Of a stretch of DNA of 64,000 nucleotides, positions 28,320 to 28,891 are shown piece after piece (the first letter of the stretch is position 1; every line of letters starts with the position of its first letter). The translations under genes and the position numbers were made by a program. The stretch is from Escherichia coli. Its GTDB lineage: Bacteria; Pseudomonadota; Gammaproteobacteria; Enterobacterales; Enterobacteriaceae. Below the pieces are notes generated by a model. It did not search any database, had not been told where the DNA came from, and was given only the letters and a program-made list of their open reading frames with translations. Where the stretch lies: the NCBI RefSeq assembly GCF_003334385.1, contig NZ_QOWN01000018.1; one strand, written 5' to 3'.

Positions 28320-28680
28320 CGTAACTTACTCATTATTCTTACATTGACGACTAAGCTGCGGGCAAAGTAACGCCTTTCCGGGTGTGAACCGATGGCCTCG
28401 TGTCTAGTCGCGTCGCCAACCTCACGGTTATCGTCAGCTCAAAGAGGCGCAGAGTGTCGGTTGCCCGTTTTTCATGCGGAAAAACAGCGCAATTATCAAA
28501 GAAACAGACTGGGTATTACTCTCCAGAAATATTTCCATCTACCGGTAAGGACTGCAACCCGCAGCCCGCTAACTGCCTGAAAGATCAATACGTCTTACGC
28601 CATTGCTGCGTGGATGATCGGTCGGGCAAAATGGGTTATTCCGTAAAATTTCTTGTTTTAACAAGGATGGACACGGAAAC
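28320..28680 (-). promoter_or_regulatory. rne 5' untranslated leader (autoregulatory) and promoter region
   Basis: 572-bp gap between the rne start and divergent rluC; rne is known to have a long structured 5' UTR; extent here is approximate. Confidence 0.5.
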
Positions 28681-28774
28681 GGCCTCATTATTCCACTGCA
28701 AGCCTTGTTATAGCAAGATGACTTTTACCATTTATCACCCGCTTACTCACAGTTTTTTCACTTCTTGCTGGTGA
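28454..28774 (+). CDS. yceQ: Doubtful ORF (106 aa from GTG) antisense to the rne leader
   Basis: In-frame GTG 28454 inside ORF 28400..28774; length matches the annotated hypothetical yceQ as recalled; no recognisable domain. Confidence 0.3.
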
Positions 28775-28891
28775 TTGGTTTAATAACCATCAATAAAGTG
28801 ATCACGCAGTGAAGTAATAAGGTGCAAAAGTAAATATAAGCATAGAAAAATGAGTGGCGCGAATCCTGTTGGCTAATTAGAATCGCCAACC

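Follow-up and report, generated by a model that had tools for sequence, protein, structure and literature searches.

The rne–rluC spacer of Escherichia coli, control region of rne, and the status of the yceQ open frame within it

The spacer between rne and the divergent gene rluC in Escherichia coli contains a small open reading frame, yceQ, whose reported essentiality raises the question of whether it encodes a protein or is an open frame that merely overlies the sequences controlling rne. The locus was analyzed in a window of 64,000 nt (RefSeq assembly GCF_003334385.1, contig NZ_QOWN01000018.1), and all coordinates are those of this window. A preceding reading of the same DNA, made from the letters without database searches (the sequence-only reading), had considered yceQ more likely a non-coding artefact than a protein gene, and its claims are taken up where the results bear on them.

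Layout and conservation of the spacer

The two genes that bound the spacer are:

25134–28319, minus strand: rne coding sequence (RNase E, 1061 aa), from the ORF and the RefSeq annotation
28892–29851, plus strand: rluC coding sequence (23S rRNA pseudouridine synthase, 319 aa), divergent from rne, from the ORF and the RefSeq annotation

The spacer, 28320–28891, is exactly 572 bp long, and the length, the divergent arrangement and the ORF coordinates agree exactly with those given by the sequence-only reading. The window is of E. coli K-12 type. The interval 28250–28950 was 100% identical to E. coli K-12 chromosomes and was found in every one of the 5426 complete E. coli genomes, with an identity of at least 99% in 5395 of them; a contiguous match to the region was missing in 11 of the 5426.

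For comparison, 120 Enterobacterales loci were fetched with an invariant 20-nt piece of the rne leader. In 112 of these loci rne and rluC were divergent neighbors, separated by a spacer of mostly about 552–600 bp. The spacer DNA was conserved across 112 other Enterobacterales species well above the usual intergenic level, with peaks of conservation at 28320–28339 (the ribosome-binding end of the leader), at 28560–28619 (the hp2 stem-loop), at the hexamers of promoter P1 and in a block beside rluC. We regard this interval as the region that controls rne.

The rne leader and the promoter region

The leader of rne and its main structural parts were placed as follows:

28320–28680, minus strand: rne 5′ untranslated leader of the P1 transcript, 361 nt, from the Rfam match and the promoter position
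28573–28629, minus strand: hp2 stem-loop, the most conserved part of the leader, holding the invariant GCAGCAAUGGCGUAAGACGU (alignment columns 58–114)
28353–28567, minus strand: long-range closing helix and multibranch domain (hp3 region), with columns 120–130 pairing with 353–363

A cmscan search revealed that the Rfam family RF00040 (rne5, the RNase E 5′ UTR element) matched 28344–28680 on the minus strand with 260.1 bits (E = 3.7e-82), the curated gathering threshold being 180 bits. The match covered the full model (positions 1–333 of 333), was recovered again when the whole window was scanned, and sits on the rne strand, with its 3′ end 24 nt short of the rne ATG (28319) and a P1-like promoter upstream. 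At E ≤ 1, Rfam gave a single further match in the region, to mir-316, which at 20 bits fell below its threshold of 80 and was dismissed as a chance hit. The leader length of 361 nt is that of the P1 transcript in the literature, from which we also take the name hp2 and its role for the stem-loop at 28573–28629.

The element was also recognizable outside of E. coli, with rne5 scores above gathering in 18 of the 20 other Enterobacterales genera or loci tested. No above-gathering match was obtained in Raoultella ornithinolytica (L110) or Candidatus Regiella insecticola (L089), despite the presence of the invariant 20-mer in both; the leader of the former holds a 258-nt insertion, and the spacer of the latter is 977 bp long, with a 414-nt insertion upstream. 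When the leaders of 17 genera were aligned and folded to a consensus structure, 63 pairs were predicted, 16 of which had compensatory double-sided changes. These were concentrated in the hp2 stem, where pairs 61/111, 69/103 and 70/102 had 5, 8 and 7 double-sided changes, respectively, while the inner CCGA/UCGG helix of the leader was invariant in 17 of 17 genera. The locus is therefore the Rfam rne5 element, given the full-length match, the position directly upstream of rne and an hp2 that is both conserved and covarying. The element was originally defined in E. coli K-12, and no difference from it was seen here in E. coli; in leaders of other genera, in contrast, two hot spots are occupied by ERIC-like insertions, each about 125 nt long.

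These insertions were seen at two recurrent spots in Citrobacter, Klebsiella, Raoultella, Kluyvera, Pseudocitrobacter and Erwinia. They lay after the equivalent of window position 28538 (loci L035, L038, L070, L081, L110, L039, L088, L104, L060, L094 and L054) or after that of position 28642 (L043, L099, L116, L118 and L104). Most were about 108–130 nt in size; two were about 255 nt and, by our reading of the sequences, appear to be tandem pairs. The Citrobacter insert, further copies of which occurred elsewhere in L060 and L016, resembles the ERIC/IRU core inverted repeat. In Klebsiella oxytoca the leader with its insertion still scored 229 bits against rne5.

Upstream of the leader, four further features were located:

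28687–28716, minus strand: rne promoter P1, sigma70-type (−35 TTGCTA, 28716–28711; −10 AATAAT, 28692–28687)
28732–28751, no strand assigned: DnaA box pair, TTATCACCC gc TTACTCACA, upstream of P1 and inside the 3′ part of yceQ
28834–28862, no strand assigned: rluC-adjacent conserved block, TAAGCAtAGAAAAAtgaGTGGCGC, with about 95% conservation across 113 Enterobacterales species
28872–28884, no strand assigned: second rluC-adjacent block, TAtTTAGAATCgc, conserved to the same degree in the same species

The promoter scan gave P1 an 18-nt spacer with a TG between the hexamers and placed the start site near 28680, which coincides with the 5′ end of the rne5 model. Each of the two hexamers was kept in 95% or more of 113 Enterobacterales sequences. 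Searched for promoter and terminator consensus sequences, the region yielded the minus-strand P1-like site alone and no terminator. Covariation, together with the conservation of leader and promoter, indicates that selection acts on the structure of the minus-strand RNA and on its promoter. The expectation of the sequence-only reading, that a long structured rne 5′ UTR would be transcribed from the minus strand, is thus borne out by the RF00040 match of 260 bits, the covarying helices and the conserved promoter.

Four rne promoters, P1–P4, have been described within 555 bp upstream of rne (PMC8361080), and a DnaA ChIP-seq peak with exactly this double DnaA box at 28732–28751 has been reported (PMC11317965). 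The double box was kept in core Enterobacteriaceae, from Escherichia to Mangrovibacter and Trabulsiella, and was absent from Pantoea, Yersinia, Serratia, Pectobacterium and others, in which P1 is conserved. The two blocks near rluC are probably elements of the upstream rne promoters, of the rluC promoter, or of both. A −10-like TAGAAT at 28878–28883 ends 8 nt before the rluC ATG, and rluC has no obvious Shine-Dalgarno sequence, so that its mRNA may be leaderless or nearly so.

Natural insertions upstream of P1 were observed in two E. coli strains. In the O121 strain 201805972 (L123), ISEc11 was found at the equivalent of 28755–28757, at about codon 101 of yceQ, where it truncates the frame near its 3′ end, 75 nt upstream of the P1 start. 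In strain M217 (L122), IS1 was found at the equivalent of 28833–28841, between yceQ and rluC, with a 9-bp target duplication. Both elements part the region upstream of P1 from rne, and P1 and the leader are intact in both strains.

The yceQ frame

The open frame lies on the opposite strand:

28454–28774, plus strand: yceQ ORF, 106 aa, GTG 28454 to TGA ending 28774, judged non-coding

The 106-aa ORF described by the sequence-only reading is present, with exact coordinates, which are those of the K-12 gene yceQ (b1085). Read mechanically, the same frame reaches farther, to GTG 28400, and would encode 124 aa. Neither version had a match in Pfam at E ≤ 10 or in NCBIfam at E ≤ 1, in keeping with the earlier statement that yceQ has no recognizable domain. 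The frame is missing from the RefSeq/PGAP annotation of identical DNA, in which rne and rluC only are listed. An AGAGG resembling a Shine-Dalgarno sequence occurs 6 nt before GTG 28454; the conserved leader motif CCUCU on the other strand is complementary to it and explains its presence.

The sequence-only reading had placed the ORF entirely antisense to the leader. This holds for 28454–28680, or 227 of its 321 nt (∼71%), and does not hold for the remaining 94 nt, 28681–28774, which cover the P1 promoter, the DnaA double box and DNA upstream of P1. Beyond P1, any minus-strand transcription of the DNA under the 3′ part of yceQ would have to start at promoters located further upstream.

The length of the frame was compared with that of ORFs in 5000 dinucleotide-preserving shuffles of the spacer. 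ORFs of 106 aa or more arose on the plus strand in 1.9% of them and on either strand in 3.5%. A frame of this length is mildly unusual locally and unremarkable genome-wide, where it is expected a few times per genome.

Projection of the yceQ frame onto 112 orthologous Enterobacterales spacers revealed no unbroken copy other than those of the window, E. albertii and one divergent E. coli, in the last of which the stop codon is mutated to CGA. In Citrobacter, Salmonella, Enterobacter, Klebsiella, Kosakonia and the rest, at DNA identities of 75–90%, the projected frame was broken by 1–9 in-frame stops, by frameshifting indels or by both. Outside of Escherichia, translation begun at the aligned GTG mostly ended after 7–88 codons, and the start codon itself was lost beyond the core Enterobacteriaceae. 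Within the genus, 3 of 4 substitutions in E. albertii and 5 of 8 in the divergent E. coli changed an amino acid or removed the stop. With only 4–8 substitutions, an open frame in E. coli and E. albertii is indistinguishable from one that has lacked the time to decay.

Variability at the first, second and third codon positions was 0.108, 0.083 and 0.131 for yceQ, as compared with 0.050, 0.022 and 0.328 for rluC (first 321 nt, same species as the yceQ columns) and 0.017, 0.006 and 0.236 for rne. The third-position excess of yceQ was thus a ratio of 1.37 (one-sided permutation p = 0.022, in one of three frames), whereas that of the flanking controls rluC and rne was 9- to 20-fold. The weak excess in yceQ was rejected as a coding signal, since three frames were tested and it concerns one of them, since it is weaker than in the flanking genes by a factor of 7 to 15, and since it occurs in the same sequences that carry the stops and frameshifts. 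Codon usage was scored against 29 long real genes of the window and 43 spurious ORFs that lie out of frame within real genes. The score of yceQ, −0.20 bits per codon, fell with the spurious ORFs (−0.17 ± 0.17), and all real genes scored above it (minimum +0.175, mean +0.32 bits per codon). Codon conservation across Enterobacteriaceae, which the sequence-only reading had named as a check on its view, thus gave no purifying selection on the yceQ codons and a frame that is broken outside of Escherichia.

Published genetics and alternative readings of yceQ

Several genome-scale studies bear on yceQ. No ribosome-profiling reads were assigned to YceQ in three conditions (Price et al., 10.1101/038851), and the absence of YceQ translation rests on such published statements. 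Transposon insertions in yceQ were tolerated in one orientation only (Goodall et al., TraDIS, PMC5821084; also 10.1101/038851), and the “essential” call for yceQ in the Keio/PEC data was put down to loss of the rne promoter (Goodall et al., PMC5821084). Similarly, CRISPRi at yceQ was deleterious only with dCas9 guides oriented to block transcription of rne (Rousset et al., 2018, PMC6242692), and a nonsense mutation at yceQ codon 8 was tolerated in a genome-reduced strain (PMC10249474).

In Syn61-type recoding, three yceQ serine codons resisted replacement by synonymous AGC/AGT and were described as “non-viable recoding events” (PMC7614783). We infer that these are codons 2, 7 and 15 (28457, 28472 and 28496), the spacing of which is 15 and 24 nt as compared with the published 14 and 24 nt. 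Codon 2 (28457–28459) overlies the invariant, paired leader bases C222, G223 and A224. As yceQ is antisense to the structured leader, edits that are synonymous in yceQ can be non-viable through damage to the RNA structure. Each of these published results shows that what counts is the nucleotide sequence, through its effect on rne expression, and not a YceQ protein.

A different view of the same frame would make yceQ a real, very young de novo gene restricted to Escherichia, with very low or condition-limited expression. Such a gene would be expected to be open in E. coli and E. albertii, as yceQ is; its length in the top 2–3.5% of shuffles, the plausible Shine-Dalgarno-like AGAGG 6 nt upstream and the weak third-position excess (p = 0.022) would also fit. 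The empty ribosome profiles in three conditions (10.1101/038851) and the tolerated stop at codon 8 (PMC10249474) speak against it, as do the ISEc11 truncation in a natural O121 strain and the loss of the stop codon in another Escherichia lineage. Moreover, the changes within the genus are mostly non-synonymous, codon usage is like that of spurious ORFs, the scan found no plus-strand promoter-like site, and the Shine-Dalgarno-like motif is accounted for by the leader CCUCU. On balance, a young protein-coding gene is extremely improbable.

A non-coding role for the plus strand was also considered, in which an antisense RNA, starting for example near the rne ATG, would form a divergent “excludon” with rne and modulate it via transcriptional interference or cleavage of the duplex by RNase III. 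ExcludonFinder lists rne–yceQ as a divergent overlapping transcript pair from E. coli RNA-seq (PMC12288877). As evidence of plus-strand transcription this entry was set aside as uninformative, because it does not separate transcription from annotation overlap and would arise automatically once the rne leader runs across an annotated gene. In 28250–28960, a consensus scan of low sensitivity gave no plus-strand sigma70-like site. Furthermore, CRISPRi guides that block plus-strand transcription caused no fitness defect (PMC6242692), and transposon insertions that drive rne were tolerated though they would interrupt any antisense transcript (PMC5821084; 10.1101/038851). An antisense RNA of this kind is accordingly very improbable. 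Equally hard to credit is the broader proposal that yceQ is a recent element, found only in Escherichia and either protein-coding de novo or transcribed as antisense RNA, that subtly tunes RNase E expression; if it were true, yceQ would show a gene being born within an essential regulatory RNA.

It is, by contrast, very probable that the spacer consists of the self-regulating leader and promoters of rne and that yceQ is a chance open frame without a functional protein. Transcription from P1, on the minus strand from about 28680, would yield the 361-nt structured leader (rne5) ahead of the rne start codon. RNase E recognizes its own leader, chiefly through hp2, and the decay of rne mRNA becomes faster when RNase E activity exceeds demand, as described in the literature on feedback control through the leader (Jain and Belasco, 1995; Sousa et al., 2001; both as cited in PMC8361080) and on hp2 in autoregulation (Diwa et al., 2000, as cited in 10.1101/038851). 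Because decay of the mRNA rises with free RNase E activity, the result is homeostatic control of an essential enzyme. The DNA upstream of P1 carries further regulatory sites, including the DnaA box pair and additional promoters. On the antisense strand, yceQ would be a chance open frame that happens to be uninterrupted in Escherichia, and its reported “essentiality” would arise because its deletion removes the promoter and leader of rne. The judgement of the sequence-only reading that yceQ is more likely a non-coding artefact is upheld by the loss of the frame, the lack of coding periodicity, the spurious-type codon usage, the absence of a protein family and the published genetics. The rne leader and promoter and the artefact status of yceQ are all previously known and settled in published work.

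The case resembles those of ypaB/nrdA, sroG/ribB and psrO/pnp (PMC6242692), which likewise appear “essential” only via the promoter or leader of an essential neighbor. Common to yceQ and ORFs of the ypaB/nrdA type is a fitness effect that is specific to strand or orientation and follows the essential neighboring gene. Unlike these ORFs, yceQ does not merely lie upstream of its neighbor but runs antisense to the transcribed leader of that divergent gene.

The practical value of these results lies in annotation and genome engineering, and no new biological question is opened. yceQ, already dropped by RefSeq/PGAP, is not to be treated as an essential protein gene. Any edit in 28344–28716, even one synonymous in yceQ, alters the leader or promoter of rne; such edits may be lethal, as genome-recoding projects found.

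Elsewhere in the window, the whole-window Rfam scan at gathering level also returned the SraB small RNA at 30541–30709 on the plus strand, downstream of yceF (210.6 bits), and the PyrC leader at 6560–6609 on the minus strand (68.7 bits), both of which are known E. coli elements.
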